Positions 9,798-32,903 are shown, counted from the first letter of the stretch. The stretch is DNA of 64,000 nucleotides from Candidatus Bathyarchaeota archaeon (GCA_963714275.1 CAVQNT010000006.1:448001-512000); one strand, 5' to 3'. Notes: generated from the letters alone by a model not told the origin. Program-made: numbers and translations.

Positions 9798-9910
9798 TTT
9801 TTATGGTCTATTCCAAAAAAATGCACTAACAATATTTTTTCGTGCTTATTTTAATCAGCTTTATTTAATTTTGAATCGACAATTAATGTAGACTTGGAGA
9901 GGCATTACCG

Positions 9911-11083: not shown

Positions 11084-11109
11084 GACATCATTTCATATAT
11101 TGTTGTAGG

Positions 11110-12400: not shown

Positions 12401-12439
12401 AAGTTATGCCAGCTTTCCATTAATTGCTGTAGATTTTTA

Positions 12440-14664: not shown

Positions 14665-14705
14665 AACTCATTGATGTCTCCTTTTTGTGCGAAGATAAAG
14701 GCATT

Positions 14706-15494: not shown

Positions 15495-16536
15495 AAGACA
15501 ACCCTTTCAAGAATCTTTCCTTGTAAAGCCTTTTGCTCAAGTCGACATCGAAGAAGGATTCAACGGGATCCAGTATTTCAGGAGTCTTCTCATACACGGA
15601 CCTTGCGACATTAAGAACCGCCTGCAATCCCTTTTTAGTCATTTTTCCCAACGGCTGCCTTGAAGAACCAGAGGGCATACCGAGAACGTTCATTAGGGTC
15701 TTGTATGGAAGCGGGTTTCTTGCTTTGCACGCGATTGTACCATAAGGCGTGTCTTCATCCGTTTTTACTGTGACCATTCCGAAAAGTGGCTTAAGAGCCT
15801 CGTACAGCTTTTGGTAATTCGAGGAGTCTCTTTTCAGTATTGCTTGGACAAACTGTTGAATTGGTCCTGGCGCAACGTTTGACGCGACTGAAATGACGCC
15901 GCTTGCTGCAATCTGCGGGTCCATCATCATGTCAAATGTCTTATCGTCGTCCCCGGAGAGGATGTCAAAGTCTGGTCCACATAGACGGCGCGTCAACCTC
16001 ATGTTGTCAAGGTTGCCCGTTGCTTCTTTGACGGCTCTAAGGGTTTTGAACTGAGAATGGAGAATCGCCAGATCTTGTGGGAGAAGCTGGGTTCCAGTCC
16101 TGCCCGGAATCACGTATGGGATGATTTGGATTTCGGGGAACTTTCGAGCCACGGGTTCAACGTATTCTCTTCTTATTTCCATTGAGCTCGGACCGTTGTA
16201 GTAGGGGTCAACGAGCAGTATGCAGTTTATCCCGTGTTCGGAGACTTCGTGGGTGGCTTCCAAGGTTTCTTCAGTGTTGTTGCTTCCTGTTCCGCCGATG
16301 GTTAGGCATTTGCCATTGACATCGTCAAAAACTTTCTCGATGACTTTGAGGTGCTCGTTCCAGGTGAGGGTTGGGCTTTCACCCGTCGTTCCTACGGCTA
16401 GTATGCCGCTTATGTCTTGTTTCACTTGGAAATCGACTAAACTTTTTAGTCCTTCATAATCAACTTTTCCACTTTTCTTCAAGGGCGTTATTGACGCAGT
16501 GTAGCATCCACTGAACTTACGCATCCTAATTATCAC
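15487..16536 (-). CDS. dapA: 4-hydroxy-tetrahydrodipicolinate synthase
   Basis: GTTGESPTL, PYYN, IPGRTG, AVKEATG, LSGDD. Confidence 0.95.
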   Translation of the reverse strand: MIIRMRKFSGCYTASITPLKKSGKVDYEGLKSLVDFQVKQDISGILAVGTTGESPTLTWNEHLKVIEKVFDDVNGKCLTIGGTGSNNTEETLEATHEVSEHGINCILLVDPYYNGPSSMEIRREYVEPVARKFPEIQIIPYVIPGRTGTQLLPQDLAILHSQFKTLRAVKEATGNLDNMRLTRRLCGPDFDILSGDDDKTFDMMMDPQIAASGVISVASNVAPGPIQQFVQAILKRDSSNYQKLYEALKPLFGMVTVKTDEDTPYGTIACKARNPLPYKTLMNVLGMPSGSSRQPLGKMTKKGLQAVLNVARSVYEKTPEILDPVESFFDVDLSKRLYKERFLKGLSYD

Positions 16537-16587
16537 CTAATAACGCATTTTTTTCAATGTGCTATATTTATGTTTTTCGTTTTTTGA

Positions 16588-16602
16588 TTCCGATTTTCGT
16601 AA
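16588..16602. promoter_or_regulatory. Putative Lrp/LysM operator upstream of the dapA promoter
   Basis: TTCCG-ATTTT-CGTAA semi-palindrome just upstream of a minus-strand BRE/TATA (CGAAAAA..TAAATATA, 16563-16579). Confidence 0.6.
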
Positions 16603-16778
16603 AATATAATTTTTATACTTTATTTATGATTTATATTGTTGAGCATCTCCTGAGTCAAGCTGTTACCGCGTTTGTTTCAATATTTATGTTGTAAACTGAT
16701 TCGGGGTTCGAACCCCTTGTTCATCTAACCATTAAGAATCAAACGAAGTTAACTAGCTGACTAAATGGCTCATGTTGG

Positions 16779-16793
16779 TTACGATTTTCGCAA
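16779..16793. promoter_or_regulatory. Second putative Lrp/LysM operator at the regulator's own promoter
   Basis: TTACG-ATTTT-CGCAA, 13/15 identical to the first site, directly before a TATAT box at about 16800. Confidence 0.6.
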
Positions 16794-16827
16794 AAGGCAT
16801 ATATTTTTCGAATTCTAAATAAGTGTC

Positions 16828-17220
16828 ATGGATGATGTGGACCTTGAAATTCTGAAGATTCTGAAAAGAGACGCCAGAACAAAATACGTTAAAGTGGCGA
16901 AACTGGTCGGCTTGACAGAGGGCGCAGTTAGAAGGCGGATAAAGAAGCTCGTCAAGCAAGGCATTATTAAAGGATTTACTGTTGAAACAATGGCGGAGTT
17001 CGAAGGCATAGTCCTTGTGGAGACAAGCCCAAGTGGGACAAAAGAAGTCATAAAAAATATCGGCAAGATAGCCTCAAGGGTCTTTGAGGTTTCAGGAGAC
17101 TACGATATCGCAGCCTTGATCCAAGCGTACACTATGGATGACTTGAACAGAAAAATTGACGGGATAAGGAAACTTGTTGGAGTGAAAAACACAAATACTC
17201 TGGTTAAGCTCACTGGCTAA
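16828..17220 (+). CDS. Lrp/AsnC-family regulator (LysM-like)
   Basis: MDDVDLEILKIL..DAR..AKLVGLTEGAVRRRIKKL and EVSGDYD. Divergent from the lysine genes. Confidence 0.88.
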   Translation: MDDVDLEILKILKRDARTKYVKVAKLVGLTEGAVRRRIKKLVKQGIIKGFTVETMAEFEGIVLVETSPSGTKEVIKNIGKIASRVFEVSGDYDIAALIQAYTMDDLNRKIDGIRKLVGVKNTNTLVKLTG

Positions 17221-17263
17221 ACCTGATGCTCTAGGTTATAATTTCGGGTAAGTAGAAATAACC

Positions 17264-18148
17264 TCAAATGGCTTCAAGGGCTTTGTACATTTTTTCGTAG
17301 GCAATGCCAAAGTCGCTATCCTTCGTTAACGATGTCTGGGTGTCCGCATAGAACTGCAGGAAGCCTTTAAGGTCTCCTTCTTTGACGTGCCGTTTGAGTG
17401 TCTCAGCGTTCGAAATGAATTTTTCGAGGATTTGCGCCGAAAATTTATTGTCCATCTGGATTGATGCATACAACGACGGGTCTTCGGTCATCACTCCTTC
17501 GCTCAAAATCAACTGCAACGCGAATGTTGTGCCACCAAGTTTCTTCAGGATGTTAAGGTCCTCTTGCCCAATCACAGAAGCGAAAATTATGTTCAAGAAA
17601 TGTGGAAGCGAAAGCGCCGCAGCCATGGCTTTGTCGTGTTCCTCAACGTCGACAACGACCAGTTCCACGTTCGGAAACAATGTCTTCGCCACCCTAAACT
17701 CCGAGGATGGGTCTGACACTGGAACAAGCGCGATTTTTTCTCCAGCAGTTTTCGTGACGCCGGGTCCAAAAAGAGGATGAATCGAGACTGTTCTTGTTCC
17801 TTGAGCTGCCACTTTTTCTAGGACAGGGAAAACTTGGGATTTAAGCGACGAAATCTCCACGATTGTGGCGGAACTTTTAATTTTGGATGAAATTTCCTTT
17901 AAAACTTTTGGGGTAATATCAATGGGAGTCGAAAGTACGATTATCTCAGCGTCTTTCGCAGCTTCGACGTTGTTCTGTGCGAGTCTAGCGCCTGTGTACT
18001 GGGCTATGGTTTTCGCTTCCTCGCGTCTTGTGTCCGAAATCGTGACATCGTGTCCACTTTTAATGAAATAGTTTACGAGCCACTTTCCCATTCTGCCTGC
18101 TCCGCCAATAATGGCTACTTTCATTCGGTTGTCCTCCAAAACATGCAT
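17264..18148 (-). CDS. tyrA: Prephenate dehydrogenase
   Basis: IIGGAGRMG, SSLK, SIHPLFGP, EEHDKAMA...LPH. Confidence 0.88.
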   Translation of the reverse strand: MHVLEDNRMKVAIIGGAGRMGKWLVNYFIKSGHDVTISDTRREEAKTIAQYTGARLAQNNVEAAKDAEIIVLSTPIDITPKVLKEISSKIKSSATIVEISSLKSQVFPVLEKVAAQGTRTVSIHPLFGPGVTKTAGEKIALVPVSDPSSEFRVAKTLFPNVELVVVDVEEHDKAMAAALSLPHFLNIIFASVIGQEDLNILKKLGGTTFALQLILSEGVMTEDPSLYASIQMDNKFSAQILEKFISNAETLKRHVKEGDLKGFLQFYADTQTSLTKDSDFGIAYEKMYKALEAI

Positions 18149-18154
18149 TTTCTT

Positions 18155-18481
18155 CTAACGTTGCGTCTTTATTGTGTCTCTCTGGACCTGCTTGGACTCT
18201 TCGAGGAGAAGCTGCAAAATCTTCAAACAAAAACCTTCGTCCAAATTGTGCTTTTTGCATTGCCCCAAAACCTTTGCCCCTAGTTTCTGTTCAATTTTCG
18301 CATTCTTAACGGGAATTCCTTCGCTGGCTTTGATTTCTCCAATCTGCTTAGCTAGCTGAAGGCGTTCTCCGCATAAGTCGAAAATTTCCAGCGTGACCCT
18401 TTCAATGCGTTTCCGCAATTCATCCAAACTATCGGTTTTCTCACTCAAAGACAATCCCACGGAAAGTCCAGAAGCTTCCAA
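18155..18481 (-). CDS. Chorismate mutase (AroQ type)
   Basis: LDELRKRI...ER..LAKQIGEIK...ESKQVQ, adjacent to tyrA. Confidence 0.8.
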   Translation of the reverse strand: MEASGLSVGLSLSEKTDSLDELRKRIERVTLEIFDLCGERLQLAKQIGEIKASEGIPVKNAKIEQKLGAKVLGQCKKHNLDEGFCLKILQLLLEESKQVQRDTIKTQR

Positions 18482-18534
18482 AATAATATGCAGGCTTCAG
18501 TTTATAAGAATGAAACTATTGTTTAAGGCGAGGG

Positions 18535-19220
18535 TCATTCTTTTTTTGCTAGGAACCTGACGACGTCATTGATGTTGTCAATAATTGGGTAATCAGAGCT
18601 CTTGAACCTTTTCGATGTCTTGCCCATGACTGACGAAAACAAACTTTAATCCTGCTTGTTTTGCGCATTCAGCGTCTGACCAGTGGTCTCCGACAAAAAG
18701 TGTCTCCTGCGCCTTTACTCCCAAAAGCTTTAGCAGGTGAAACGCGTGTTCTGGATTCGGTTTTGGCTGGTCAACGTCGTCTCTGGCTGCGACGGTGTCA
18801 AAATATCGATTTAGACTAAACTTGGCAAGTATCTTATGCGTGTATTCGCGGCATCCTCTTGTCATGACTCCGAGCTTCAACCCTTGCTCTTTGAGAACAT
18901 ACAACGTTTGTGGCACGCCCTCAATTACTGTTGCGTTCTCTGTTGATTGCAGTTCAACCTCGTTCATTATGTTCGACACTTGAGCGAGAACATCCGAAAC
19001 CCGATTCTCAGAGAAACCTTTCTGCTGAAGGCAGTCTAACAGCCAAATTTATGATCTCGGTGCTCAGCATGTCTTCGTTCAACAGCCTTTCCTTCACTCC
19101 GTTGGCTTGAAGAAACGTTATGACCTTCCTTTTCATCTCCTTAAATGGAATAGCGGAATTTATCAAAGTCCCATCCAAATCGAAGATAACAGCCTTTAAA
19201 GGAAGACTCAACCCAAACAC
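18535..19220 (-). CDS. HAD-family phosphatase (frameshifts)
   Basis: IFDLDGTL, KPNP, FVGD...D..CAKQAG. Confidence 0.85.
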
Positions 19221-19242
19221 GCCAAATTTAACAAGAAACCTT

Positions 19243-19617
19243 CTACACTAATATCATATAGAGCTGAGCTAGCTGTTTAAGCTGGTTTACGCGTCTTTCA
19301 ATTATTGCCTGTAGTGTTTTCCTCAACTCTTCACTGTGAGTTGACTTGTCAATTTTGCTTATTCTGTCTGCGAGATGAGTGTCACCTAGAGTCCCTTTAA
19401 TCCATTTCGCAAAATCTTCGCGACCGAAATGAAATTCGATCGCCTTTATTGATGTTTTCTTCAGTTTTTCAAGGAAACTTTCCAGCGATGATGCCATTTC
19501 GCCTGTATACTGTCCGACATCTGTGAAGAATAGAAAAGATTCAGGCATAGGAACGGTTCTAAGAATTCTTAAGGCGAACTCTTGATATACTTCGCTTTGA
19601 GTTCTTTTCTTAACCAA
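19243..19617 (-). CDS. DUF5752-like protein
   Basis: FLFFTDVGQYTG..ASSL...IEFH..REDFAKWI...LGD..LA pattern. Confidence 0.65.
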   Translation of the reverse strand: MVKKRTQSEVYQEFALRILRTVPMPESFLFFTDVGQYTGEMASSLESFLEKLKKTSIKAIEFHFGREDFAKWIKGTLGDTHLADRISKIDKSTHSEELRKTLQAIIERRVNQLKQLAQLYMILV

Positions 19618-19935
19618 TATATTTACCTTCTAACCATGTTCAAGCACTATTCAGCTAGCTAGATATTAGCTTAACGATTCATTATATACTATACGCATAC
19701 TGTTTAATTAAATCGCTTTTATGTCAAATATACATGAGTTATTCTAAACTGAGCAAGATTCGCGTGTTTTTTTAGAGAGTAGAGAGTATACAACACATAA
19801 TAGAAGAGAAGAGAGAAAGATTAAATTTTAACCCCCCACACACACTTAGGACAGCTATCTATAAACCAAACAAAGGGGAATGTTACTTTTTTGAAGCACA
19901 ATAGTAAAGAAACAAAGGCTATGAGATTTCACCTA

Positions 19936-20368
19936 TTATCCTTTTAAGAGAGAACGCGCGTTTTCAATGAAAATAGAAGCTCTCTCTTCTGAAACACCAA
20001 TTGTTTTTGCTATTTCTCAGGACTAGAAGCTGCTAGTTCATTAACGTCCTTAATGCCTGCTTTCATTAGCTTCTCTGACAGCTTTGACCGATACCTTTCA
20101 CCTTAGCAAGGTCCAAAGTGGCCTCAGGGGTTGTGGCTTCAGCTTTTTGCTTTCTACCTTCTGGAAGGGTTTTTGTCGTGTCAATGCTTAGATATGTTTT
20201 GAGAGTTTTTACATTTTCGTCGTGTTTAGTTGATCTTCTAATGTCGATCGGTATTCCCATCTTTAATGCTTGTATAAAGCTTAAACCTTTTTCTTTCAAT
20301 TCCTCTCGGCTGAAACCTTTTCCTCTTTTTGATTTTCCTTTCCTCTTAACAATCGCCTGAATAGTCAT
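19936..20368 (-). CDS. rpl13e: Ribosomal protein L13e with a C-terminal helix-hairpin-helix extension (frameshifts)
   Basis: RGKGFSREEL...GIPIDIRRSTKHDENV, then DLAKVKGIG continuing in shifted frames as KLSEKLMKAGIKDVNELAA...IAKTIGVSEERA. Confidence 0.8.
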
Positions 20369-20471
20369 TATTCGTCATCAATAGATAATTATCAATACGC
20401 TCAAATTTAAGGTTTGATGGTCTAGAAAGATCCTTTTCAAGCGAGTGCCAAGACTAGCTAGCGCGCGCGAG

Positions 20472-21077
20472 CTAGCCTACTTTAAATGGCATTCTATATC
20501 CTTTCGCCACCAACCTTTTGTGGATGGAATTCTTCAAAGCGCCCAGTCCTTCTCCTGTCTTTGCGCTCACTGGGAATACATGCTCTCCAACAGCAAATGG
20601 ATAACCTTTGCCTATTTGATGTATGAACTCTTCAAGGTTAACCTCTAACTCCTTCTTATCCGCCTTATCTATCTTGTTAGCCGCAACTAAAGGAAACTCC
20701 CCTAAAATCTCTGTCAAAAACTGAACCATCTCCACGTCCACTGAGATAAACCCCTTCTTCTCCAAACGCCACGTTACCTCCGAGAACGTGGATATGTCTA
20801 AAACATGGACGGCTAAAACTATGTTCTGAGCATAGGACTCTAGGAACTTGATGATCTGATCATTTTTCTTATCCTCCAAACGTTTAGAAGCTCCCAGAAT
20901 CCTACCAAACCCTGGCATATCTACAAGCACCAAATCGCCACTCAATGGATATTTTGAAATCCGTCGCGTAGTTCCTGGTCGTTTACCGATTGCCACATCC
21001 AAGCCTACGACTTCTCTGATGATGCTACTCTTGCCCGCATTAGGCCTACCAGTGAAAATCAAATACCTCTCGTGCAT
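20472..21077 (-). CDS. engB: EngB/YihA-family GTP-binding protein
   Basis: GRPNAGKSS, RPGTT, DMPGFG, NKID, VSAK. Confidence 0.88.
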   Translation of the reverse strand: MHERYLIFTGRPNAGKSSIIREVVGLDVAIGKRPGTTRRISKYPLSGDLVLVDMPGFGRILGASKRLEDKKNDQIIKFLESYAQNIVLAVHVLDISTFSEVTWRLEKKGFISVDVEMVQFLTEILGEFPLVAANKIDKADKKELEVNLEEFIHQIGKGYPFAVGEHVFPVSAKTGEGLGALKNSIHKRLVAKGYRMPFKVG

Positions 21078-21314
21078 ACTTAATATTACATAAGATGCGG
21101 TATACTTGAATGTATTCTAACTGTTCCTCATATAAATTCCTAAATGACAAGAAATGCTATGATATCAGGCACTTCATCAGAGTCATACCCATAGTGTGCG
21201 GGTGAGAATCCAAGCAAATTGAACAGAAGCACAGCGATTCGAGCCGCTAGCTGAGCTATTTCAAAAATATGAGGACATCTGACAAATGCGCGTTACCTCC
21301 CATAAACATAGAAC

Positions 21315-21590
21315 CTATTTACCCTTAGATTTCTGAAGATTCTTATACTCGTCCTCAGTCAGAATGAACCACTTAGCATAGAAGTTAGGTTTAACCCATA
21401 CTCCAGCACCATAGAAGACCTTAAGATACCCCTTTAGGGTGTGCATGCCTAAACCAGATTCCAAAGCATACACAGACATCAACTTATACTCATTCATGCT
21501 TTTACGGTTCTTTTCAATAAAACTCTTGAAATCCTCAAGCCTCTGCCGTCGCCCTTTGATAGCAGGTACGTCATGCGTAACCTCAGCCAT
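21315..21590 (-). CDS. Hypothetical protein (possible HTH)
   Basis: 91-aa ORF with a strong SD (AAGGAGG) upstream. Confidence 0.55.
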   Translation of the reverse strand: MAEVTHDVPAIKGRRQRLEDFKSFIEKNRKSMNEYKLMSVYALESGLGMHTLKGYLKVFYGAGVWVKPNFYAKWFILTEDEYKNLQKSKGK

Positions 21591-21841
21591 TCCATTTAAA
21601 CCTCCTTAAACAAGATATACACATAAACATATGAAACCTTTTTATCTATAGGGGTACTCTCGCTCTATATTATATAATTAAGGGTTCACTCTGGACAAAT
21701 TATTTAATCTCAGATGATAAGACTTAGAATTAATAACCTAAACCCTAGACACCAAGAACATTAAGCAAAGAACCTAAAGGATAGCTGAGCTAGCGTGCGT
21801 GTGCGTGTGGGTTTTTAATACGAAGAGTAAGAGTAAGGATT

Positions 21842-22032
21842 TGGGTTTGGGGGTTAAAATTTAACACTTACTATGGTTTTACTTGTTCTTGTTCAGCTTT
21901 TCTCCTTACTAGATCTAGAGAAATTCTCTTATTCTTTAGACTCTTCGTTAACCAACTTCTTTTCTTCCATCTTTTAAGAGCCCTTTCCCTTCTTTTTCTT
22001 TCCTTTGCTGATTTCTTCATTTTTCTTTTCTC
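21842..22032 (+). repeat. 191-bp inverted repeat, left copy
   Basis: By-eye alignment: identical to the reverse complement of 27070-27260. Confidence 0.93.
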
Positions 22033-22188
22033 CTTTCTATTACTCTATATATTACCCCCTTCACGAACGCCCATATGTGTGACTCATACAAAAAACCTAA
22101 ACGATAATGTAAATGCTTAAGCTTCTTTCTGTGATAGTATTCAGCGAACCACCAAATCCATCCACATATTTGCCAAGAATTGCTTAAA

Positions 22189-22374
22189 CTATTGTCTCGT
22201 CATAACGACTTCTTCTTTAAGAGTCTTCCTTTCTTTTTGCCATAGTTCCCCTTTTAACAGGTCTAGGACGGCGAATCGGATAGCCGCACTCCTAGATGAG
22301 TATATGCCCTTCCCAATCAGCTCATTCAGCCCCTCCAAGCAGGCTTCGGGCAACAAGAACGTCACCAACTCCAA
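22189..22374 (-). CDS. CopG/RHH regulator
   Basis: LVTFLLPEACLEGLNELIGKGIYSSRSAAIRFAVLDLL. Confidence 0.8.
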   Translation of the reverse strand: MELVTFLLPEACLEGLNELIGKGIYSSRSAAIRFAVLDLLKGELWQKERKTLKEEVVMTRQ

Positions 22375-22518
22375 TTATAATCGCCTCCGTGTATAGGAAA
22401 TCGATCAATCGCCATATGAAAACCTTTCAGGCTCCTAAAAAGGATGTTAGGTGTCAGCGATATCTCAGCATAATATAGTATGCTTTCAGCGTAGGCTCAT
22501 ACTGCTGCTAGCTCAGCT

Positions 22519-22687
22519 ACCAGTATACTGCAGAGAGTGCTTTGCCAAGAGAAGGCCCGCAAGATCAGATTTTGGCAGAAGAAGATACTAGAAACCGTAT
22601 ACGCTAGTTATCAGCAAACTGAAGATTCATTTTATTTTTTTTCGTTTTCTCTTTTTAATATATTAATGCACAGCTCATCCAGAAGCT
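22519..22687 (+). repeat. About 168-bp direct repeat (3' end and downstream region of the CxxC-x17-CxxC gene)
   Basis: Near-identical to 27534-27703. Confidence 0.92.
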
Positions 22688-22910
22688 GACTAGATATCAA
22701 AGGCTAATCTCTAACTGGGCGGTTGCAAACGGTATTCAACGAATCTCTGTATAACTTAAGCCTGATCTTTTCATCATCTTAAATAAGCTACTTCGATGGT
22801 GATGGCTGGATTCTACCTTTTCGGAGAAGCTCACTGACTTCATATCAAAAACCATTTGGTTAGCTACATTAATATTCGTGGTCCTTCATTGTAACCTCGG
22901 CAGTTAGGAT

Positions 22911-23687
22911 TTGGCAAGTGAAAAGGCCGGACGCCACAAAACGTTTGGTCGTTTTCAGTTCTATAATCCGACTGAGCGAGAGTTGGCGAGGAAAGCAGTC
23001 TTGAGAAGACAAATGGGGAGCGCGCGAAAACCGTATTGGAGAGGTAGGGGAAGAATTCCCGGTAGGGGAAGCGCGTACAAACATGTCAAGGCTCTCGAAT
23101 ACCTTGCCATACTAGCTGTAAAAAACAGTGTTGATGCAGTCGAGTTTTTTGACAGCATTGTGGAAGCTTGGAAGAAAGATGAGTCACAATGCAAACAGCT
23201 AACGGTTAGGTGCCGAGAGAGGGCAAGAGACTCAGCGGTCTTTTTATTCATCGCGACTCACAACACTATGGCTCAATTTTCCGTGCCGACTGCTGTCTTA
23301 CAAGGAGATAAGAGTCAGCTTGAACCTTACGTGAAAACCCTTGCCTCGAGAGCTCCGTCGACCGAAGAGAATGCGAAACCCCAGATTAAGGATTTGATAG
23401 CGGGAATGAAAAAGGTCAACCTGAAGGTTAAGGTGCTTGAGATTCCAGAACCGAATGCGATCTATACAAGATATGGCATAGAATCTCATGTCACAAACGT
23501 ACTTGTAGGGGACCAAACTGGAACAATAAGAATGTGTTTGTGGAACGAATATATCAAAACTGTTTCTAAGCACGACATAATTGAGATCGAAAACGGCGAA
23601 GTAGCCAATTACAGAGGCGAACTACAGCTAAGAATCAGGAGAAACGGAAACCTAAACGTTATCAAAAGAACTAGCTCACTCAGCTAG
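22911..23687 (+). CDS. OB-fold ssDNA-binding (SSB/RPA-like) protein with an N-terminal extension
   Basis: C-terminus IKDLIAGMKKVNLKVKVLE...VGDQTGTIRMCLWNE...IEIENGEV..YRGELQL. Confidence 0.8.
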   Translation: MASEKAGRHKTFGRFQFYNPTERELARKAVLRRQMGSARKPYWRGRGRIPGRGSAYKHVKALEYLAILAVKNSVDAVEFFDSIVEAWKKDESQCKQLTVRCRERARDSAVFLFIATHNTMAQFSVPTAVLQGDKSQLEPYVKTLASRAPSTEENAKPQIKDLIAGMKKVNLKVKVLEIPEPNAIYTRYGIESHVTNVLVGDQTGTIRMCLWNEYIKTVSKHDIIEIENGEVANYRGELQLRIRRNGNLNVIKRTSSLS

Positions 23688-23760
23688 AATCAGATAAAGA
23701 TTTTTCATAAAATAATAGCTCAGCTTGCCTTTGTCAAACAAGTCTTAAAGAGGTGTCTTA

Positions 23761-24045
23761 TTATTGTGTCAAGGTTATTTCGATCGTTGATATGTTCCTG
23801 CTTTTACTTTCGCCTTCTCTCGGCGGCATCTCCTCCGTTCCTATGCTGATTTTGCTTACATTCAGTTCTTTCATGAATCTATGCCTCACTATTTCGGCTG
23901 CGTCAACAGCGGTGTTTATTGCTTGTCCTCTCGCCTTCAACGTAACTTCCTTAACGTTTGGTCCAGCGAAACTCGCCATGATCCCCAAAACATAACTCAT
24001 TGGCGGTTTCATGCCCACAAACATAACTTTTGGCTCACTAGACAT
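23761..24045 (-). CDS. albA: Alba DNA/RNA-binding protein
   Basis: FVGMKPPMSYV, LKARGQAINTAVDAAE, ISIGTEE, NISTIEITL. Confidence 0.9.
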   Translation of the reverse strand: MSSEPKVMFVGMKPPMSYVLGIMASFAGPNVKEVTLKARGQAINTAVDAAEIVRHRFMKELNVSKISIGTEEMPPREGESKSRNISTIEITLTQ

Positions 24046-24168
24046 GACTCTGACTTCCCAACCTGTCACTCTGATAATACAGCAGACGGCTCCGCTTTTT
24101 AAGCCTTCGCAAAGTTAGTTAGCTCACTTAACATTAGATTGCTCTGGTTCTTTTTTGGGTGTGGCAGA

Positions 24169-25179
24169 TTATTCATTTAGTTCGTTCCTAAGTTGCTTGG
24201 TCTTCTCGGATAGGAACTCAACGATCTTCTTGTTGTCAAAGTGCGCTAGAGGTTTACCGCATTTGGGGCATCGGAAAACGTGGTTTATTGCTTCCTCAAA
24301 GGGAAGGCGTCTACAACCAAGCGTGTAACAACTGTAGAAGTCGTGGTTCTTTTCGTATTCCAGTCTTGTCTCAAGCTTTTCAAGAATGTGTTTCTTTTGG
24401 TTTGTCAAGAAGCCTTCGATTTGGTCTGGTTGGAGCCTCCAACGAAAATTGAACCATCCTGTGTTCTTGTCTCGGGTTCTTTGTAGGACTACGAGGGAAT
24501 GATCATAAAGCTTGTAAAGGATCTTGCGAACCGTATTCAGTTTGACGCCGCTTTTAGCTGTAATTTCCATGTCTGTAGTTTCGTCTACATGGCTGAGTAC
24601 CTCAACTATTTTGACGGCTTCTTCACCACCCAGAACTCTTGCCACTTTCATTACAGTATCATGGTTCACAAGGTTTTGTCGCCAGCTCCTCCAACCTGTC
24701 TTTACAAGTTTCTCCCTGATTTTGGGTGCTTCAGCGACCCATTCTAGGAGTGTCCAGAAACGTCTTTCGTCTTTCAGCCTTTCCGGTGGTACGCCTGCTT
24801 CCACACACCATTTTATGTAGCCTTTCTCAACTCTCGTTCGGAGTTCGCCTGTGCTTTCCACTTCTGCCACACTGAATCCTCTATCCTTCAAGTATCTACG
24901 TAAGCCAAATAGAATGTGTCCAGAAAGAGCATGTGCCACTTTGAAATGCGTTTCCCCATCAGCCTGCATCGCATCAACGATCTCTTCAGCAATTTTGACA
25001 GCGTCATCCAGATACCGTTTATTCTCGAAATCTGGGGGCTGAAAGGATGAAGATGGAATCCTGCGTTCCATATATTCGTGGTCTGGGAGTTTTAGAGCTC
25101 CAATCACTACACCTAAGATTAGGTCTCCCCACCCAGCGCCATCTATTAAAATCTCGTTTTCTGACATAAGCAAATCCAA
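24169..25179 (-). CDS. Fusion of an RNase HII-like N-terminal domain and a transcription factor E (TFE alpha) paralogue
   Basis: N-half ILIDGAGWGDLILGVVIG...KTGWRSW. The C-half is highly similar to tfe at 29327-29846 (VRKILYKLYDHS, RTRDKNTGWF, FRCPKC). Confidence 0.78.
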   Translation of the reverse strand: MDLLMSENEILIDGAGWGDLILGVVIGALKLPDHEYMERRIPSSSFQPPDFENKRYLDDAVKIAEEIVDAMQADGETHFKVAHALSGHILFGLRRYLKDRGFSVAEVESTGELRTRVEKGYIKWCVEAGVPPERLKDERRFWTLLEWVAEAPKIREKLVKTGWRSWRQNLVNHDTVMKVARVLGGEEAVKIVEVLSHVDETTDMEITAKSGVKLNTVRKILYKLYDHSLVVLQRTRDKNTGWFNFRWRLQPDQIEGFLTNQKKHILEKLETRLEYEKNHDFYSCYTLGCRRLPFEEAINHVFRCPKCGKPLAHFDNKKIVEFLSEKTKQLRNELNE

Positions 25180-25330
25180 GTCCGAGACCTAAACTGCCAG
25201 AATTCTAGCTAGGTCCTTACCTTTCAATCGTGTTCGCTGCTTTACTAAATAATTGGGAACAAATCTGAAAAACCTTTCCTTTCTGACTTTGCAACTTCAT
25301 TCAACACTAGAAGAAAAAATGAGTAGTTAG

Positions 25331-25612
25331 CTAGGGAAGGCATTGTTTCAGCACTGAGCTAGCAGTAGCCAACCCACCATTTAAAAGAGATGACCGATGG
25401 GCTTCTTCCTTCTGACTACCAACGATAGCCGACCCGCCAGAAACCTCTTGATATGTTTCCCTGAGTAATTCCATTTGTTCCAAAATGTCTTTAACTAATT
25501 CAGAAACTTCTTCTTCAGTTAGTTCTATGGTGGAGAACGAGATTTCATTTGCATTAATGGAGACATCGAAAAGTCTTCCGTCTTCACTTGAAACATAGGG
25601 TTGGACTTTCAT
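25331..25612 (-). CDS. Hypothetical protein
   Basis: 93-aa ORF translationally coupled to 25609..25806. Confidence 0.4.
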   Translation of the reverse strand: MKVQPYVSSEDGRLFDVSINANEISFSTIELTEEEVSELVKDILEQMELLRETYQEVSGGSAIVGSQKEEAHRSSLLNGGLATASSVLKQCLP

Positions 25613-25806
25613 GTTGTTGTCTCCTCAACTTCCCATTCATTTACAATATAGTTAATGTCTTGGTCTGTAATATCGTTAGGGTCTCTATAATGTTGATGTT
25701 CCTCTGCAAATTTATCCGCAGCATCCTTAGAAGCAAATATTTTCACAAGGTTTCTCGCATATCCCCGTCCTAAAGGACAATTACACCAAACAAGATATAT
25801 TCTCAC
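25609..25806 (-). CDS. Small hypothetical protein (virus/plasmid-like)
   Basis: MRIYLVW...IFASKDAADKF...YIVNEWEV, a pattern common in small phage proteins. Confidence 0.45.
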   Translation of the reverse strand: MRIYLVWCNCPLGRGYARNLVKIFASKDAADKFAEEHQHYRDPNDITDQDINYIVNEWEVEETTT

Positions 25807-26196
25807 TTATCAAACACTTCCTCGACTTTTAGAATTGCTAAATTTCTGAATTATGTAGCTAGCTGCTTCTTTGTTCTTATGGTGTTCCATGAGACAGATG
25901 GGATCACCAATCTTAAACAGCTTGTTGCATCCGTCGCATTGCTTGATTTTATCCTCGAGTTCTGTGTAGATGGAGCAGTGAATATAGTTCGTTACGATAA
26001 ATTCTCTGATTTCAGAGCAGATATTGTACCCGTCACACTTCTTCTTTGCCTCATCAGCTTCAGGTTTTTTGGACTCAATGTACTCTATCCTCCCAAGTTT
26101 TTCTTAAATCTCTTTAATATCTTTCGCGTATTTAATAATCAGAAGCGCGCTAAATTAAATTTACTAGAAGTCTTAATCTTGCTTTTAGTGGTTATT

Positions 26197-26571
26197 ATGA
26201 CCGAGATATCAGAAAGGAACAGGGAATGCGCACTCAAAGTTTTGGAAGAGTTAGGCTATGAAAAGGTGTCCATACCCAATTCTCCAATAATAGGGGCATG
26301 CTGTGACATAAGTATCAAAAAGGAAAGGAGTCTGGAGTTTTGTGTAATGTGCGAATATCCATATAAAGAATTTAAGAAATGGATGGGAAAAGGATCGCCA
26401 GAAATAAGTCTACAGGAAGTGCAAGAGCGATTAGGTAAATTGAATGGTCTCCTCAAAAAATGCATTGAACATGGTGGCAGCCAAAAAAAGAAAAAGGTTG
26501 AACAAACAAGACGGTTTCAAAAGGGTAAACAACCAAGATGGTTTCAACCCAAACTTCCCAAAGGTTTATAG
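26197..26571 (+). CDS. Cys-rich hypothetical protein
   Basis: Likely true start MTEISERN, with ACCD and FCVMCE motifs. Confidence 0.5.
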   Translation: MTEISERNRECALKVLEELGYEKVSIPNSPIIGACCDISIKKERSLEFCVMCEYPYKEFKKWMGKGSPEISLQEVQERLGKLNGLLKKCIEHGGSQKKKKVEQTRRFQKGKQPRWFQPKLPKGL

Positions 26572-27069
26572 TTTTTTTCATAAAAAAATGAACTGGTAAA
26601 AACAAAAAACACGCGCAATCTTTCGGAATCAACGATATTTTCATGTTAACCCAGTAACTTTCGAGAACGTCGTAAAAACCACGATTAAGTTTGACCCTGA
26701 CATTCTCGCTCCCTTCGAACTTGAAGTAGAACCAAAGATGGATAGTCTACAAGACCCTGACACGCGAGTAGCGAGGTGTACATTCTTCTCTTTTTATCAC
26801 TACGTTCTATAGAGTCTAATATGCAGACTGTATTAACTGCAGCGACATCAGGTCTGTGATTTTAGGATCGTTCAGGTATTCCCTTTTCGCTTTCTATATT
26901 CTGGAAAGACTTTCAGTATTTAATTTTAATGCACACACACAAAATTGCATCCCGCATCTTTTCTTCTTATGATGATCTTGGATGCTAAAGCGTTAAGTAG
27001 GTTTGTTAGGATAGATAGGAGAGAACAAGTTCTAGTCAAGCGAGAACCACCAAGAAATATAGAAAAAAA

Positions 27070-27260
27070 GAGAAAAGAAAAATGAAGAAATCAGCAAAGG
27101 AAAGAAAAAGAAGGGAAAGGGCTCTTAAAAGATGGAAGAAAAGAAGTTGGTTAACGAAGAGTCTAAAGAATAAGAGAATTTCTCTAGATCTAGTAAGGAG
27201 AAAAGCTGAACAAGAACAAGTAAAACCATAGTAAGTGTTAAATTTTAACCCCCAAACCCA
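27070..27260 (-). repeat. 191-bp inverted repeat, right copy
   Basis: Reverse complement of 21842-22032. Confidence 0.93.
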
Positions 27261-27450
27261 CACAGTACACTTGAAATTCTTTGCCATTGTATCCAAAATT
27301 AGCAAGTTTTCAGCTAACCATATTAAGTTTTTTAACTTCGTCATGGATAAGTTTAAAAGAGAGGGCAACGTCTCTCTGAGATTACGCAGGAAGCAAAGCT
27401 TCTAGAATTAGACTTTATTCTTGCAAACAAAAAATAGGAGTGAAAACAAC

Positions 27451-27605
27451 ATGGAAAGTCGTGAAATGCACAAAGCAGTTTGCGCCGAGTGCGGTAAAGA
27501 ATGCGAAGTTCCCTTCAAACCCGACGGCACAAGACCAGTATACTGCAGAGAGTGCTTTGCAAGAGAAGGCCCGCAAGATCAGATTTTGGCAGAAGAAGAT
27601 ACTAG
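27451..27605 (+). CDS. CxxC-x17-CxxC zinc-ribbon protein (1-nt deletion near 27560)
   Basis: MHKAVCAECGKECEVPFKPDGTRPVYCRECF. The duplicate at 22519 restores the frame FAKRRPARSDFGRRRY*. Confidence 0.88.
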
Positions 27606-27796
27606 ACACCGTATACGCTAGTTATCAGCAAACTGAAGATTCATTTTATTTTTTTTCGTTTTCTCTTTTTTATATATTAAATGCACAGCTCATCCAGAAA
27701 GCTAAGCTTACTACAGGTATCACATAATTAATAACAGTGGGTAAATATTAAATATGTTTTGTACATTTGTTGGACAGATCTATGAGGGGATAAAGT

Positions 27797-28066
27797 ATGT
27801 CGAAGGTTTCTAGCGGTGTAGTTATTAGTCATAGTAGAGGCCCAAAAACTCAGAAGCCGAAAGAATATTTGATACAGTTGTCTGGTGTTAAATCAGTTGG
27901 TGAAGCAGGGCAGTTAATTGGGCGAAAGGTAGCTTGGCCACTTGGAGAAAGAAAATGCTTAGGAAAGATCGTTTCTTTGCATGGGAAGAACGGACTCGTT
28001 AGGGCTCGTTTCAGAAAAGGTGTGCCGGGTCAAGCATTGGGAAGTCTAGTGGAAATAATCGGTTAG
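27797..28066 (+). CDS. rpl35ae: Ribosomal protein L35Ae
   Basis: RGPKTQ...LIGRKVAW...GKIVSLHGKNGLVRARFRKGVPGQALG. Confidence 0.93.
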   Translation: MSKVSSGVVISHSRGPKTQKPKEYLIQLSGVKSVGEAGQLIGRKVAWPLGERKCLGKIVSLHGKNGLVRARFRKGVPGQALGSLVEIIG

Positions 28067-28320
28067 TGAGCTAAGTCAGCTAAAATTTAATCCCCAAACC
28101 CAAAAAAATACGCCATTAGGATAAGCTCCCTATTTTATATACTATTGCAAAGTACATTTAATACAGTTAATGTGAGGGGGCTTGAAGCAGGGCGTGCTGA
28201 AACGCTTAAGATTTTCGCGAAGAGCTATAGGCATTGCTAGCTAGTTTTCCGCTTTGAAGAATATAATTGGACATCATAAATTTTAAGAATCCCTTGTTCA
28301 GATAAACCAACCAGTGATGC

Positions 28321-28785
28321 ATGTTGAAAAACTTGGAAATTAAGGTATTGACTCCAAAAAACTTTAAGAAATATGGACGAATCCTCTTTCCGACTGAAGA
28401 AGAAAATAAAACAATACATGACCATTCAGTGGCCTACATAGTGCTCGAAAAAGCCGTCTCAAAAGGCTGGCTGATGTCCCATTATTCAGTGTCAAAAAGG
28501 TTCACGGACATCATGGAAAACCATCCCAACACCAAAGAAACTTTTGAGCCACTTTGCGGAGCATCCATCATAATCTTAGCCCACGGTCCAACGCCCGAAA
28601 ACCCCGAAGCTTTTCTGCTCGATAAGCCCGTTGTGCTGTACGAAGGCGTGTGGCACGATGTTCTGGCGCTTTCGGAAAACGCAACAATGCGGATAAACGA
28701 GAACACTGAAGTTCAAAGTGTTCGCCAAAAACTCTCGTTCACAATCAAAGCTAAACTATGCACGGAAACAAACAAAAAAAGATAA
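28321..28785 (+). CDS. Ureidoglycolate lyase-like cupin
   Basis: LTPKNFKKYG, MENHPNTKETFEP, GVWHD. Confidence 0.7.
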   Translation: MLKNLEIKVLTPKNFKKYGRILFPTEEENKTIHDHSVAYIVLEKAVSKGWLMSHYSVSKRFTDIMENHPNTKETFEPLCGASIIILAHGPTPENPEAFLLDKPVVLYEGVWHDVLALSENATMRINENTEVQSVRQKLSFTIKAKLCTETNKKR

Positions 28786-28806
28786 ACTTCAAACACCAAT
28801 ACGAGG

Positions 28807-29334
28807 CTACCTACAGAGTCTCATCATTTCTTTATGGAGACTCAGCACTCTTTCGGCTGAAGGATGGTCTTCGCCCAGCCTATTTTTTAGCTTCTGAACC
28901 GTCTGCCTAATCGGAACCCTTGTCTCACCTTCGACAAGTTTGTCCGCATAAGTCACAATTTTCTCCTCCAAAGTATGCGGAATATACGTTCCTTCAGGCC
29001 AACCGAACTCGCGGGCTTCGTCGTCGCTGATGCCACCGCCGAGATGTCTTTCGATGATGTTAGCCAAACTGTCAGGTAAATCCTGTGAACGTGCAATTTT
29101 GGCTCCAACAATCGGATGGTTGATGCCGTGAGTTTTAGCCCGACCTAAGTCATGCAGAAGCGCACCGATATGAACCAAATCAACATCGACACGAGCTCCG
29201 TTATTAGCACATTTCTTTACCATCTGGACAGCAACCTTCGCCACAGCTTCACAGTGACGAACAACATTCGGTGAACAACCACTTTCCTCAAGAATCCTAA
29301 TGGCTTCCTCCGGAGAAGGAAGGGACTTACTCAC
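28807..29334 (-). CDS. HD-domain phosphohydrolase
   Basis: RHCEAV, GALLHDLGR, ERHLGGG, EEKIVTYADK. Confidence 0.88.
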   Translation of the reverse strand: MSKSLPSPEEAIRILEESGCSPNVVRHCEAVAKVAVQMVKKCANNGARVDVDLVHIGALLHDLGRAKTHGINHPIVGAKIARSQDLPDSLANIIERHLGGGISDDEAREFGWPEGTYIPHTLEEKIVTYADKLVEGETRVPIRQTVQKLKNRLGEDHPSAERVLSLHKEMMRLCR

Positions 29335-29846
29335 CTAATTCGCTCCTTATCTGTTCGACCTTTTTGGATAGAAACTCTATTATTTTGCTGTTGTCGAAAT
29401 GCATCAAGTGATTGTCGCATTTTGGGCAACGGAAAACGTATTCGGTTGCTTCTTCGAACGGAAGCCGTTTGCACCCCACTGTTTGGCAGAAATAGAAATC
29501 ATGGTTCTTCTCGTAGTTCAGCCTAACCTCGAAGCTTCTCCAAAATGTGTTTTTTCTGGTTTGTTAGGAAACCGTCGATCTGGTCAGGCTGAAGTCGCCA
29601 GTGGAATATGAACCATCCCGTGTTTTTGTCTCTTGTCCTTCTCAGCCCCACAATAGAGTGGTCGTACAGTTTGTAAAGAATCTTACGAACCATGTTAAGT
29701 TTAATTTCAGTTTTGGCTACAATCTCCTCGTCCATGATCTCGTTAACTTGGCTGAGAACCTCAACAATTTTTACTGCTTCGTCGCCACCAAGGATTTTGG
29801 CAACCCTAATCAACGTTTCATGGTTCACAAGGGCCAACAGAATCAC
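29327..29846 (-). CDS. tfe: Transcription factor E alpha (frameshift near 29525)
   Basis: Winged helix (DEEIV..TEIKLNMVRKILYKL) plus a Zn ribbon (FRCPKC), in the usual trm56-tfe-HD gene context. Confidence 0.92.
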
Positions 29847-29928
29847 CGATGCTCTTGCCTAATGACATCGTACAATAATGGATCTTTACAAACTTAAACT
29901 AATCGCCAAAAAACACAAAATTACCAAA

Positions 29929-30472
29929 CTATAGGCTCGTTTTAACGACCTTTTTCCCTTTAGCTTGAGGAACAATCTTATTCTCAGCACTTTCATGTTG
30001 TTTCAAAAGTTCTTTTCCTTCGAATAATTCATGCAAAAAAACACCCAATGCGCTTACCTCAGAGTGGGGTTGAGAAGTCACCGAAACATTCCAGTCTGCC
30101 AGGCTCATAAGCAGATCCGGGAACTTTGGCACCTCCAACAACAATGAACTTGTTCTTCAGGGAAACCTTTATTTCGTCAATGACTTCCTGCACTGGCAAC
30201 CCATACATCGTCAAATGTATAATGTCTCCGCCACCGTGTTTCCATTCCTTAACTGTCTGCTTCCAATTATGACAAAATTTAACCTCGAAGCATCCGCCCC
30301 AAGACTTGTTCACTTTCTCGACGCTTCTTTCAACTTTTTCGTCGCGTTCTCCACTGTAAAATACGCCGTCCGCCCCAAAGGCTCTAGCTGCAAGAAACAA
30401 ATGCGTCGTTACCCGTTTGTCGCGTTCAGACCTGTGGTTTAACCTGAGAACCCAGATTTTCGGTTTGTCCAA
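29929..30472 (-). CDS. trm56: tRNA (cytidine56)-2'-O-methyltransferase (frameshift)
   Basis: LRLNHRSERDKRVTTH, HLTMYG, VGGAKVP, QPHSEVSAL. Confidence 0.92.
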
Positions 30473-31722
30473 GTCTAAAAACTCCGCCTAGCTTTTCCGT
30501 GTCGTATCTAATTTTTTCCGTTATTTGAGGAGACGCGCCAAACGCGACATTCACGAAGCCTTCCTCATACTCTACGTTCTGCACTTTAGCATGGTCGTAA
30601 ATCCAAGACAAAAGTGAAAGCGACTTCTCTGTTGTTGGCAATGTGACGAAAGAATACATGTAATGAATCAAGTTTTTGTTCATTTCATTTTCCAAAAAGT
30701 CCAAATTTGTTCTGTAAAGCGCGGAAATTGGCACAATGCTTGTCAAGCGGTCTTTCAGATTTTCCGTTCTTTCATTCAAAGTCTCAGCCGAGATCAAGTC
30801 AATCTTGTTCAACACAGTGATAATTGGGACGCTGCCTGCGCCTATCTCCCGAATCGTGTCGAGGCAGCAAGACAATTTTCTTTCAATCTCGTCCTGAGGC
30901 TCGCTAACATCGACGACTAACAGTATCAAGTCGGACAAGATCGTCTCCTCCAGAGTCGAATAGAAGGCTTCCACAAGCGTTAACGGAAGGTTGTCGATGA
31001 ACCCAACCGTGTCTGTTAACAATATTTTCTTATCATGGACGTTGATGGCTCGGGTCGTGGTGGAAAGAGTCGTAAACAAACCCACATTCACGGGCACATT
31101 CTCCACAGCAAGGGCGTTGAACAAGGTGCTTTTCCCAGAACTCGTGTAGCCCGCCAGAGAAGCAGATTGAAAACCTTGCTTTTGCCTTCTGGTTCTGTGC
31201 AGTCTTCTAGTTTTTCGTATGTCTCGAAGTTTTTCCTCGATGTTCAGAACTTGGCGTTTAACGCTATCGTGGTAAACGTCCACCTCGTATTTGCCTAAAC
31301 CATGGAAGCCCGGCTGTTCGCCTAACCTTGTCAGCCTCACCTTTTGCCTTGCGTGGGCAAGCTCATGTCGCCATCTTGCTAGTCTCAATTTGGAGGTTAG
31401 CCTCTTCTGTTGAAGCCCTTTTCTGGAAAATCTCGAGGATCAGTTGAAGCCTGTCTATTACCTCGACGCCGACAGCTTTGGCGAGGTTGTAAACCTGAAT
31501 AATCTTCAGTTCGTTGCCAAAGACTATTTTTTCAGCGTTAAGCTCTTTAGCCATTTCTGCAAGTTCTTCTACTTTTCCGCTGCCTATTTGAAAACGTGAA
31601 CTGGGACGGGTGACCTGTTCAAGTGACCCAACTACCTCGTATCCTGCTGCTTCTGCGAGGGTCTTTAGTTCGTCCATGTGGGATTTTTCAGATTGGTCTC
31701 TACGGTTAACTATGATTGCCCT
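30426..31722 (-). CDS. hflX: GTPase HflX (frameshift near 31370)
   Basis: IGSGKVEE, DRLQLILEIF, GYTSSGKST, FTTLSTT, DTVGFI, NKID. Confidence 0.92.
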
Positions 31723-31724
31723 CG

Positions 31725-32244
31725 TTACTTTTGGCTCCTCCTCTTAGCTTCCTTCAACTTCACTATTTCACCTAAAGTCACGCCTTTGCTTGTCAGAACA
31801 GAAGGAAGAGGAACCTTAGGCACAACAAGCGGAACCAGCAGCTTAATTCCCAAAGTGTGCTCCATGCTTCTCTGAGACCTTTTGGTCCGGCACCATTTTC
31901 TCGTTTTCAATCTTCTTTAACACAGAAACTTTTTCAGCGATCTTTCTGCCTAAATCTTCGTGACTTAAACCCATCTTTTCTCTAGTTCGTCTGATGAGCG
32001 ACCCATAGCCCTCAACTACAATGATGTCTTCAGAAACTGTTACGGTTCCTCTCTTTTTTATGAATGCGGTTTTTGCAGCAGAAACGTTCCCTGTTGCCAC
32101 TGACCAACCGCGACTGGCGGGTTCAAGTTTCCATTCTCCTGAGCCTAGCTCGGCACATTTGTGACATGTTATCATTTTTGCTCTTTCGATGATTACTCTG
32201 TGAGGTTCTCCGAGTATTTGGCGTCCACAAACCTCGCATTGCAT
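31725..32244 (-). CDS. mbf1: Archaeal multiprotein bridging factor MBF1 (frameshift)
   Basis: MQCEVCG...CHKCA Zn ribbon, HTH (RE.MGLSHEDL), VTLGEIV. Confidence 0.88.
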
Positions 32245-32378
32245 GCTGGCACCACCATTGTTTTATTATCTCTCGTGTCTAACTTAAGCGTGACGCATGA
32301 AAAAGAATACACTAAAATTTTAAGAGCGATTCCGTAAAAATGGTTAATATTAAAACATTTGTGAAAGGTTCATTTTGA

Positions 32379-32879
32379 ATGTCTGAAAAAAAGTGCGAAA
32401 TGTTGTGTAAGGTAAAAGCAATAGCTGACTACCAGTTCGGAAAAGGGGCAGGTGAAAGTCTCTTTCCTGAAGAAGTGTCCGTCATTATTTCCAAAAGAAC
32501 CAAGAGAATTAGGCACGTGTATCTTGATAATAAACTTCTGGTTACGTTAAGACCTACAGTCGGTCTTTTTTCGTTGACGATTGAAGGAGCCCGAAGGCTT
32601 GCCTGTGACATGAAGCCCCTTCGACAATGGGTTCAGGTGCAAGATGACGTAGCATCTTTCATCAAGAAGGGAGGAGACGTGTTCGCCAAACACGTAACAG
32701 ACAATGATAACGAGATTCGACCGATGGAGGAAATAATAATTTTAGACGGAAAGCAAAGGGTCATCGCTGTTGGTAAAGCAGTGCTTTCGGGAGACGAGAT
32801 GAATGCATTCAAAAAGGGGGTCGCAGTTAAAGTACGTAGAGGAGACTTGGAGAAAGTTAAAAAGCCTACGAAAAAATAG
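32379..32879 (+). CDS. PUA-domain protein (ArcTGT C-terminal-like)
   Basis: ADYQFGKGAG, DVFAKHV, IRPMEE, AVGKA, GVAVKVR. Confidence 0.85.
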   Translation: MSEKKCEMLCKVKAIADYQFGKGAGESLFPEEVSVIISKRTKRIRHVYLDNKLLVTLRPTVGLFSLTIEGARRLACDMKPLRQWVQVQDDVASFIKKGGDVFAKHVTDNDNEIRPMEEIIILDGKQRVIAVGKAVLSGDEMNAFKKGVAVKVRRGDLEKVKKPTKK

Positions 32880-32903
32880 TATGTGGCAAGAGGAGTGTGT
32901 GAA

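Follow-up and report, generated by a model that had tools for sequence, protein, structure and literature searches.

Identical inverted repeats around a handful of chromatin and transcription genes raise the question of whether those genes travel, or flip, as a unit. The case considered here is positions 21842-27260 of a 64,000-nucleotide (nt) stretch of a Candidatus Bathyarchaeota archaeon (GCA_963714275.1 CAVQNT010000006.1:448001-512000), which a sequence-only reading had taken for a non-autonomous mobile or invertible module. The whole stretch is called the window; it equals C6:448001-512000, where C1-C10 are the 10 contigs of the 2.64-Mb source genome (G000), and coordinates without a contig prefix are window positions. 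The comparison covered the same-genus genomes G001-G006, 251 sampled genomes of the order for the search for a gene fusion, and 80 metagenome loci kept for counts of gene neighbours of EngB. Parts of the stretch are contained in 24 runs (21 studies; sediment, wetland and peat), and the contigs of four were examined; no RNA run is among the listed runs that contain it. Taken together, the evidence makes it moderately probable that the locus reflects a recent inverted duplication of a small basic gene, within a chromosomal block repeatedly rearranged at palindromic intergenic elements.

The anatomy of the repeat is clear. A repeat search of 9.5 kb pairs 21842-22036 with 27066-27260 as an inverted repeat of 195 nt, 99% complementary, at a spacing of 5029 nt. 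The next-best inverted pairs in those 9.5 kb are far shorter (at most 27 nt, at 76-92%), so the repeat is not due to chance. By alignment, the arms match fully from TGGGTTTGGGGG inward to ~22032, bearing out the earlier description of identical 191-nt arms; the TTAAAATTTAA palindrome and TGGGTTTGGGGG tract described for the outer ends can be read at both. The features at issue are:

21842-22036, minus strand: left arm, with a 49-residue Lys/Arg-rich open reading frame (ORF; 21871-22020) and a 3' dispersed motif; a putative truncated copy
27066-27260, plus strand: right arm, with an identical ORF (27082-27231) in what appears to be its native setting
26933-27713, plus strand: cassette pair of the basic gene and a CxxC zinc-finger gene, with a counterpart at C3:105731-106507
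22519-22666, plus strand: partial CxxC-x17-CxxC zinc-finger gene (3' end), copied in direct orientation from 27534-27680 (98-100%, 1-nt length difference)
21840-21865, no strand assigned: dispersed intergenic motif TTTGGGTTTGGGG[GA]TTAAAWTTTAAY, with further copies at 27237-27262 and 28079-28104 and a more degenerate one at ~19818-19845

A search of the repeat against its own genome, proposed as a check on the mobile-module idea, returned four long copies: two in the window, plus single copies on C2 (96%) and on C3 (94%, 1 nt inserted). Four additional short matches are confined to the outer 21-27 nt. The copies on C2 and C3 are solitary, each a copy of the gene. In a four-way alignment, ~130 nt upstream of the ATG are common to the right arm, C2 and C3, and the homology of the left arm to the other copies ends 15 nt upstream of the ATG. 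The C3 copy of the basic gene is followed by a spacer and a CxxC zinc-finger gene, an arrangement seen also downstream of the right arm; 26933-27679 has 86% DNA identity to C3, and C4:142829-143195 matches the CxxC part (27343-27713) at 97%. In G004, an intact 56-residue homologue of the basic gene directly adjoins an Alba gene. By these comparisons, the arm represents a genuine small gene, conserved and present in several copies, which the right arm would hold in its native cassette and the left arm as a truncated secondary copy. The 49-residue protein matches no family in Pfam, NCBIfam or PHROGs, and its gene is in none of the 80 EngB metagenome loci; the protein is probably nucleic-acid binding.

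The outer ends of the arms belong to something else. Both 49-residue ORFs point outward, and the terminal motif begins within 6 nt of each stop codon, the outer 24 nt of each arm being part of it. In its 26-nt form, TTTGGGTTTGGGGGTTAAAATTTAAC, the motif has 32 sites in the 2.64-Mb genome at up to 5 substitutions, often adjoining (GGGTTT)n, (CA)n or CTAG tracts; the copy at 28079-28104 lies after rpl35ae. Such a motif is a generic intergenic element, not the terminus of a transposon.

The arms lie in a region without a fixed counterpart in relatives:

19256-28258, no strand assigned: 9-kb block without a collinear counterpart in same-genus genomes

On its left, 8300-19256 is collinear at the DNA level with six of the six same-genus genomes, after which collinearity ends and the sequence beyond differs among relatives. 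On the right, collinearity is found only from ~28200-28258 onward. Past a ureidoglycolate-lyase-like gene on that side, G004 and G001 proceed with genes that lie on C7 of G000, and G002, the closest relative, proceeds with window position 45524. Among the compared genomes, the 9-kb block is strain-specific; its GC content is 0.37-0.45, as against 0.42-0.49 in the flanks. The sequence-only reading had staked itself on the repeat not being a dispersed element around genes syntenic in relatives. Half of this applies: at its outer end the repeat is indeed dispersed, and its remainder is a gene in several copies, but the genes between the arms lack collinearity in the relatives compared.

The gene families of the block do keep company elsewhere. 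Metagenome contigs carry at least 116 relatives of EngB, and among the 80 loci its companions are the CxxC gene (18), the OB-fold gene (9), a gene for the N-terminal domain of a fusion protein taken up below (9), Alba (8), TFE (7), L35Ae (5), L13e (4) and the ribbon-helix-helix (RHH) gene (2). In genome G010, the N-terminal-domain gene abuts L13e. The set is a recurrent EngB-linked neighbourhood of varying order and orientation in Bathyarchaeia. Among the six same-genus metagenome-assembled genomes (MAGs), L13e is present in none, L35Ae in one and EngB in none, with G001 and G004 95-98% complete; the three genes are probably missing through fragmentation of repeat-rich DNA in short-read bins. 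Core genes such as these can therefore drop out of short-read MAGs when they are located in repeat-rich, strain-variable DNA. An empty site between engB and rpl35ae, proposed earlier as a comparison to make, was not found in clean form among the metagenome EngB loci: in two of them (L088 and L075) the gap from engB to rpl35ae is 1.1-1.5 kb, but with other relative orientations and other genes between.

Unique pieces in run X1 have a depth of 17-25 inside the segment against 19-23 outside, which argues for single-copy chromosomal DNA, and in independent runs both the interior and the flanks are recovered, with 99% identity and at depths that are alike. By own-genome tblastn, L13e, EngB, L35Ae and three ORFs without family are single-copy in the genome.

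If the locus arose by duplication, the process likely involves: inverted duplication of the conserved 49-residue gene together with the dispersed intergenic motif that follows it; retention of the right arm as the native cassette, with its own upstream region, spacer and CxxC zinc-finger gene; and placement of a recent truncated copy as the left arm. Also on the left within the segment, alongside the truncated gene copy, lies the 3' fragment copied from the CxxC gene. The 5 kb between the arms would be ordinary single-copy chromosomal DNA, part of a 9-kb strain-specific mosaic of small genes for information processing, namely L13e, EngB, RHH, OB-fold single-stranded DNA-binding protein (SSB)-like, Alba, RNase H-like::TFE paralogue, zinc-finger and L35Ae genes. 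The order and orientation of these genes would have been reshuffled between lineages, with breakpoints mostly at CTAG-rich palindromic intergenic elements. Arm identity could be kept through recency or gene conversion, with no dedicated transposition, and the arms could invert the interior by ordinary homologous recombination. The data demonstrate the anatomy of the repeat, its copy number, the paralogy, the breaks in synteny, the alternative joints and the fusion family; it is the order of these events, the gene conversion and homologous recombination as agent that we infer. Inverted segmental duplications, such as rRNA operons and insertion-sequence copies, can invert chromosomal segments by homologous recombination. 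Like them, the locus has near-identical inverted copies that bracket a few kb, no target-site duplication, no dedicated recombinase and arms that stay identical; unlike them, the unit is a 49-residue gene plus a dispersed motif, and it sits within duplicated and reshuffled single-gene pieces. Read in this manner, the block offers a well-documented case of small genes with their own promoters being duplicated and swapped at short palindromic, mostly CTAG-rich, junctions.

Traces of such rearrangement are visible in other populations. Alternative joints connect 25202/25212 to 27711/27715 and 25346/25348 to 27336, with CTAG-rich fillers, and G002 has an equivalent joint from 25363 to 27333. An opposite-strand joint in X1 connects 23686 to 26932 at depth 25. 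Of the 21 CTAG-type palindrome islands of the window, 14 are within 19262-28244; the genome mean is ~2.2 per 10 kb. Genome-wide, CTAG is rarer than expected (5346 observed vs ~9970), and CTAGCTAG is commoner (108 vs ~38). Another hot bin, C5:160-170 kb, holds 17 CTAG and (GC)7 elements together.

Several side observations concern these elements. The CTAG-type palindromes GCTAGC, TAGCTNAGCTA and ACTAGCTAGCGCGCGCGAGCTAGC cluster in few regions (19262-28244, C5:160-170 kb and C2:350-360 kb), and (CTAG)n is a stop in all six frames. Around engB, homology often breaks at a (GC)3-5 run whose position differs per contig, as in loci L079, L082, L091-L093, L095, L097, L100, L123, L130, L132 and L149. 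We considered whether (CG)n runs are insertion-sequence ends and rejected this: the flanks of 220 (GC)n tracts (n at least 3) contain no repeat family, only segmental-duplication pairs, and PF01609 has no match.

Several observations weigh against the duplication account and bear on its alternatives. A true empty site lies beyond reach, as most relatives' MAGs are without L13e, L35Ae and EngB. In X1, coverage is absent (zero depth) over 21457-21807, to the immediate left of the left arm; such a gap alone proves nothing. No listed contig bridges an arm, the contigs of the four runs being short, and the arrangement of the arms rests on the assembly. A contig of run X4 joins 21786 to 27061 on opposite strands; this is the joint expected of a flipped form, provided an arm lies between the pieces, the intervening letters not being reported. 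In a population that flips, recombination between the arms would invert the 5-kb interior, swap the native upstream region between the two basic-gene copies and re-orient the block of Alba, TFE fusion and SSB genes relative to its neighbours. Arms that are perfectly identical over 191 nt and lie 5 kb apart are ample for homologous recombination, their identity suggests ongoing exchange, and the X1 opposite-strand joint indicates that inversions do occur in the block. We nevertheless regard flipping as doubtful. X4 offers a single contig, of depth 4.4 and with 60 nt on the shorter side, and its joint fits equally well a strain in which the left site carries one complete basic-gene cassette; the breakpoints of the X1 inversion are not at the arms; and the PF00589 search found no tyrosine-type invertase gene nearby. 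Site-specific invertible segments are typified by the Hin/Gin/Cin switches and shufflons. These share with the locus a segment flanked by short inverted repeats, whose orientation could alter gene context, and differ in that the arms here are 195 bp of whole-gene homology and not short crossover sites, with no PF00589 match in 64 kb. The concentration of CTAG at junctions also counts against ordinary duplication, as it may point to specialised trans-acting recombination in place of plain homologous or illegitimate recombination: a GCTAG or CTAGC word occurs within 20 nt of nine of 15 distinct junction sites (random 1.2, intergenic-only random 1.9; P about 5e-5), in a list that was compiled from heterogeneous sources and whose CTAG-rich filler may bias alignment ends. 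A speculative extension, which we hold to be unlikely, is an undescribed gene-shuffling system of Bathyarchaeia in which single-gene informational cassettes (EngB, Alba, OB-fold SSB-like, zinc-ribbon, the small basic protein, a TFE paralogue and ribosomal proteins) are copied, inverted and exchanged across loci and lineages at palindromic junctions, by recombination acting in trans, the junctions being CTAG/(CG)n palindromes and an AT-rich palindrome whose arms are GGGTTT. If so, the RNase H-like::TFE fusion would bring a nuclease-fold domain, as a tethered part, to RNA polymerase. Integron cassette arrays and clusters of attC sites lacking integron-integrases (CALINs), which have been reported in Archaea too (10.1101/2022.02.06.479319), resemble the locus as arrays of small, mostly single-gene units with palindromic elements between them and a content that varies among close relatives. 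An integron was nevertheless rejected. The inverted-repeat scan gave eight unrelated pairs and no recurring attC-like hairpin (57-141 bp), and no integrase, such as an adjacent IntI, is in the window; the junction elements here are 10-28-nt CTAG/(CG)n palindromes plus the AT-rich palindrome, and the cargo consists of informational genes with their own promoters.

The mobile module of the sequence-only reading fares worse. Were the segment a non-autonomous transposable element, its arms would be terminal inverted repeats (TIRs) recognised by a transposase whose gene lies elsewhere, and its chromatin and transcription genes would be the cargo. Non-autonomous TIR elements and composite transposons do likewise carry TIRs around transposase-less cargo; the gene set that the repeats bound is absent here from the same-genus genomes; and the fusion occurs in one of 251 genomes of the order yet on many short unbinned contigs. 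We nevertheless consider such an element very improbable: there is neither target-site duplication nor a second unit, the arms are coding, their end motif is generic, and depth inside the segment equals that outside. As had been stated, target-site duplication is lacking: no direct repeat is common to the outer flanks ...GTAAGGATT and CACAGTACAC..., and the 10 nt outside the arms are unlike. The arms encode a conserved protein, are copies of a four-copy gene whose other two copies are solitary, and differ in their inner boundaries relative to the gene; the outer motif recurs at 32 unrelated intergenic sites, and the same families neighbour EngB elsewhere. The claimed lack of transposase and integrase agrees with the searches made. 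No tyrosine recombinase (PF00589) was found in the window, serine recombinases not having been searched for, and no DDE_Tnp_1 (PF01609) was found there or anywhere else in the genome, other transposase families not having been searched for; the genome has 14 tyrosine recombinases above the cut-off, the nearest 78 kb away. It is equally hard to credit that a long-read assembler mis-joined paralogous copies of the small gene into a false inverted arrangement. The repeat is multicopy, X1 is without 21457-21807, no listed contig bridges an arm, and the genome has many frameshifts of long-read type (native tfe, aTrm56 and others). Against this, 195 bp is much shorter than long reads and should be spanned routinely, the independent runs recover the interior and flanks as described, and the left arm has a unique inner junction with the RHH cassette, which a mis-join would not create.

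Within the segment lies a fusion gene, which has a normal tfe as its neighbour outside:

24169-25179, minus strand: 336-residue fusion; residues 1-169 are predicted to fold like type-2 RNase H, and residues 170-336 are TFE alpha (winged helix and 4-Cys zinc ribbon)
29327-29846, minus strand: native tfe, read as two ORFs (frameshift), in the order HflX-aTrm56-TFE-HD

An RNase HII-like::TFE fusion had been claimed from the sequence. The TFE half holds by Pfam, and the RNase HII-like half holds at the level of fold and not of sequence family. Residues 170-336 match PF02002 above the cut-off (E 7e-19), with NF004910 at 166.9 bits, under the 180-bit equivalog cut-off, and C284, C289, C304 and C307 are invariant in 21 fusion sequences. 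The C-terminal half is thus like archaeal TFE alpha in both its model match and its four invariant Cys residues. The N-terminal half is like type-2 RNase H (RNase HII) by superposition and unlike it by sequence: it has no match in Pfam or NCBIfam (including PF01351), a PDB profile search returned nothing relevant, and against the genome's own RNase HII piece hhalign gave a probability of 0.06, with no profile-level similarity.

The case for the N-terminal fold comes from a structural model. With a shallow alignment, the fold had reached a predicted local distance difference test score (pLDDT) of 55.7, which was unusable; the AF2 model of the domain that draws on 58 diverse sequences, gathered by a full-library profile search, has a pLDDT of 94. 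The 21 best structural matches (VIA) are all RNase HII, H2 or HIII (Z 9.3-11.6, root-mean-square deviation 3.0-4.5, over 143-155 of 168 residues), and Foldseek pairs the domain with 1eke (E 3e-5). The structural match takes in the C-terminal helical part of the RNase HII fold. Retroviral integrase cores rank next (Z up to 8.8), spanning just the first 129 residues. The catalytic acidic residues of type-2 RNase H are DEDD; D13, D14 and E118 are conserved at 90% or more in the 58 N-terminal-domain sequences. On this model, the N-terminal domain appears to adopt a type-2 RNase H fold.

The fusion is not a local accident: of 337 public homologues, the best 120 include 20 clusters (328-354 residues, 58-96% identity) that cover 98-100% of it. 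Contigs from three independent runs also run through the domain junction without gaps. Whereas the two parts are joined here, in all 30 relatives with a match the TFE alpha and RNase HII-like halves are stand-alone genes on separate contigs. The one genome with the fusion among the 251 sampled from the order is G000 itself. Scanning the genome contigs with the fusion gave one match only, at 28% and unrelated. The literature search found no paper on an RNase H-like::TFE fusion, and this conserved fusion is apparently undescribed.

Relatives of tfe and of the CxxC gene had been placed just outside the segment, and both are there. The order HflX-aTrm56-TFE-HD recurs in nine of nine relatives' loci, and the outer tfe is 87-94% identical to that of G004, as compared with 74% for the inner TFE part. 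A maximum-likelihood tree of 42 TFE sequences unites the 21 TFE parts from fusions (support 98/94) and pairs the native G000 TFE with that of G004. The tfe outside the segment is the native orthologue, and the inner one a member of the fusion family. The fusion, adjoining a normal TFE, is a candidate, open to testing, for the linking of a nuclease-fold domain with archaeal RNA polymerase. As a side observation, frameshifts split the native tfe (29327-29846), aTrm56 (29929-30472) and a HAD-like gene (19008-19220), which fits a sequencing-error pattern.

The remaining genes between the arms are:

22189-22374, minus strand: RHH gene (PF01402, E 3.6e-5, 24.0 bits)
22911-23687, plus strand: 258-residue protein with a C-terminal Ssb-like OB fold (PF21473, E 1.2e-8, 35.5 bits)
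23761-24069, minus strand: Alba gene (PF01918, E 6e-16, 58.4 bits)
25331-25806, minus strand: two small ORFs of 93 and 65 residues, without family, the second with a sub-threshold DUF7336 match
25879-26571, plus strand: ORF call of at most 230 residues, without family; its true start probably lies further in

The RHH, OB-fold SSB, Alba and TFE contents named by the sequence-only reading all have Pfam matches, and those of Alba, the Ssb-like OB protein and RHH exceed the gathering score. Own-genome tblastn shows that several belong to multicopy families. Alba has paralogues on C9 (89% at the protein level) and C7 (76%); the OB protein has them at C6:413487, C5:162944 and C9:6929 (38-51% identity) and another on C4; the CxxC gene on C4 (94%), C3, C1 and at C6:414565; and RHH at C2:939340 (88%). 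The RHH cassette as a whole (22088-22510) has 92% DNA identity to C2:939235-939656. A CTAG island (22507-22516) lies immediately before the CxxC fragment, whose description as a piece copied from a neighbouring gene agrees with the match of 22519-22666 to 27534-27680. Compared with the fragment copied from it and with its paralogues, the full CxxC gene is one C short (at 27560), so that its C-terminal tail is altered; this, too, fits the sequencing-error pattern.

The three ORFs without family occur in none of the 80 EngB metagenome loci. Small virus-like ORFs had been suggested, and PHROGs does not bear this out, with two weak matches among 10 proteins (E 0.004-0.006). A virus or plasmid origin was rejected on these weak matches and on an IMG/VR scan with the fusion alignment, which returned one locus, at 26%, a paralogue of the N-terminal domain.

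A few further observations concern the edges of the block and engB. An Rfam search of 15000-33000, at E up to 0.1, gave no match. A DUF5752 gene (19243-19617) covers profile positions 58-109 of 208 only and ends at the left synteny breakpoint and the CTAG island 19262-19274; it looks cut by rearrangement. In G002, contigs L030 (602-735) and L035 (1381-1547) have a dispersed repeat of ~130-170 nt at contig joints. This repeat has ~20 copies at 70-79% identity, in G000 at C2:612109, C2:165153, C6:391390 and other sites.

The engB gene with 42 nt upstream (20474-21119, 646 bp) has 89-98% DNA identity in 33 of 33 metagenome loci, and in 18 of them the match ends exactly at 21119 and 20474. In L075, the genes that neighbour engB are only 66-77% identical to the window copies, and the nucleotide identity of the engB block exceeds its protein identity (95% vs 93%). 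In four runs, the contig with the engB block has 5-20 times the depth of its neighbours. By these comparisons, the engB block looks like a recent spread of one allele over lineages.

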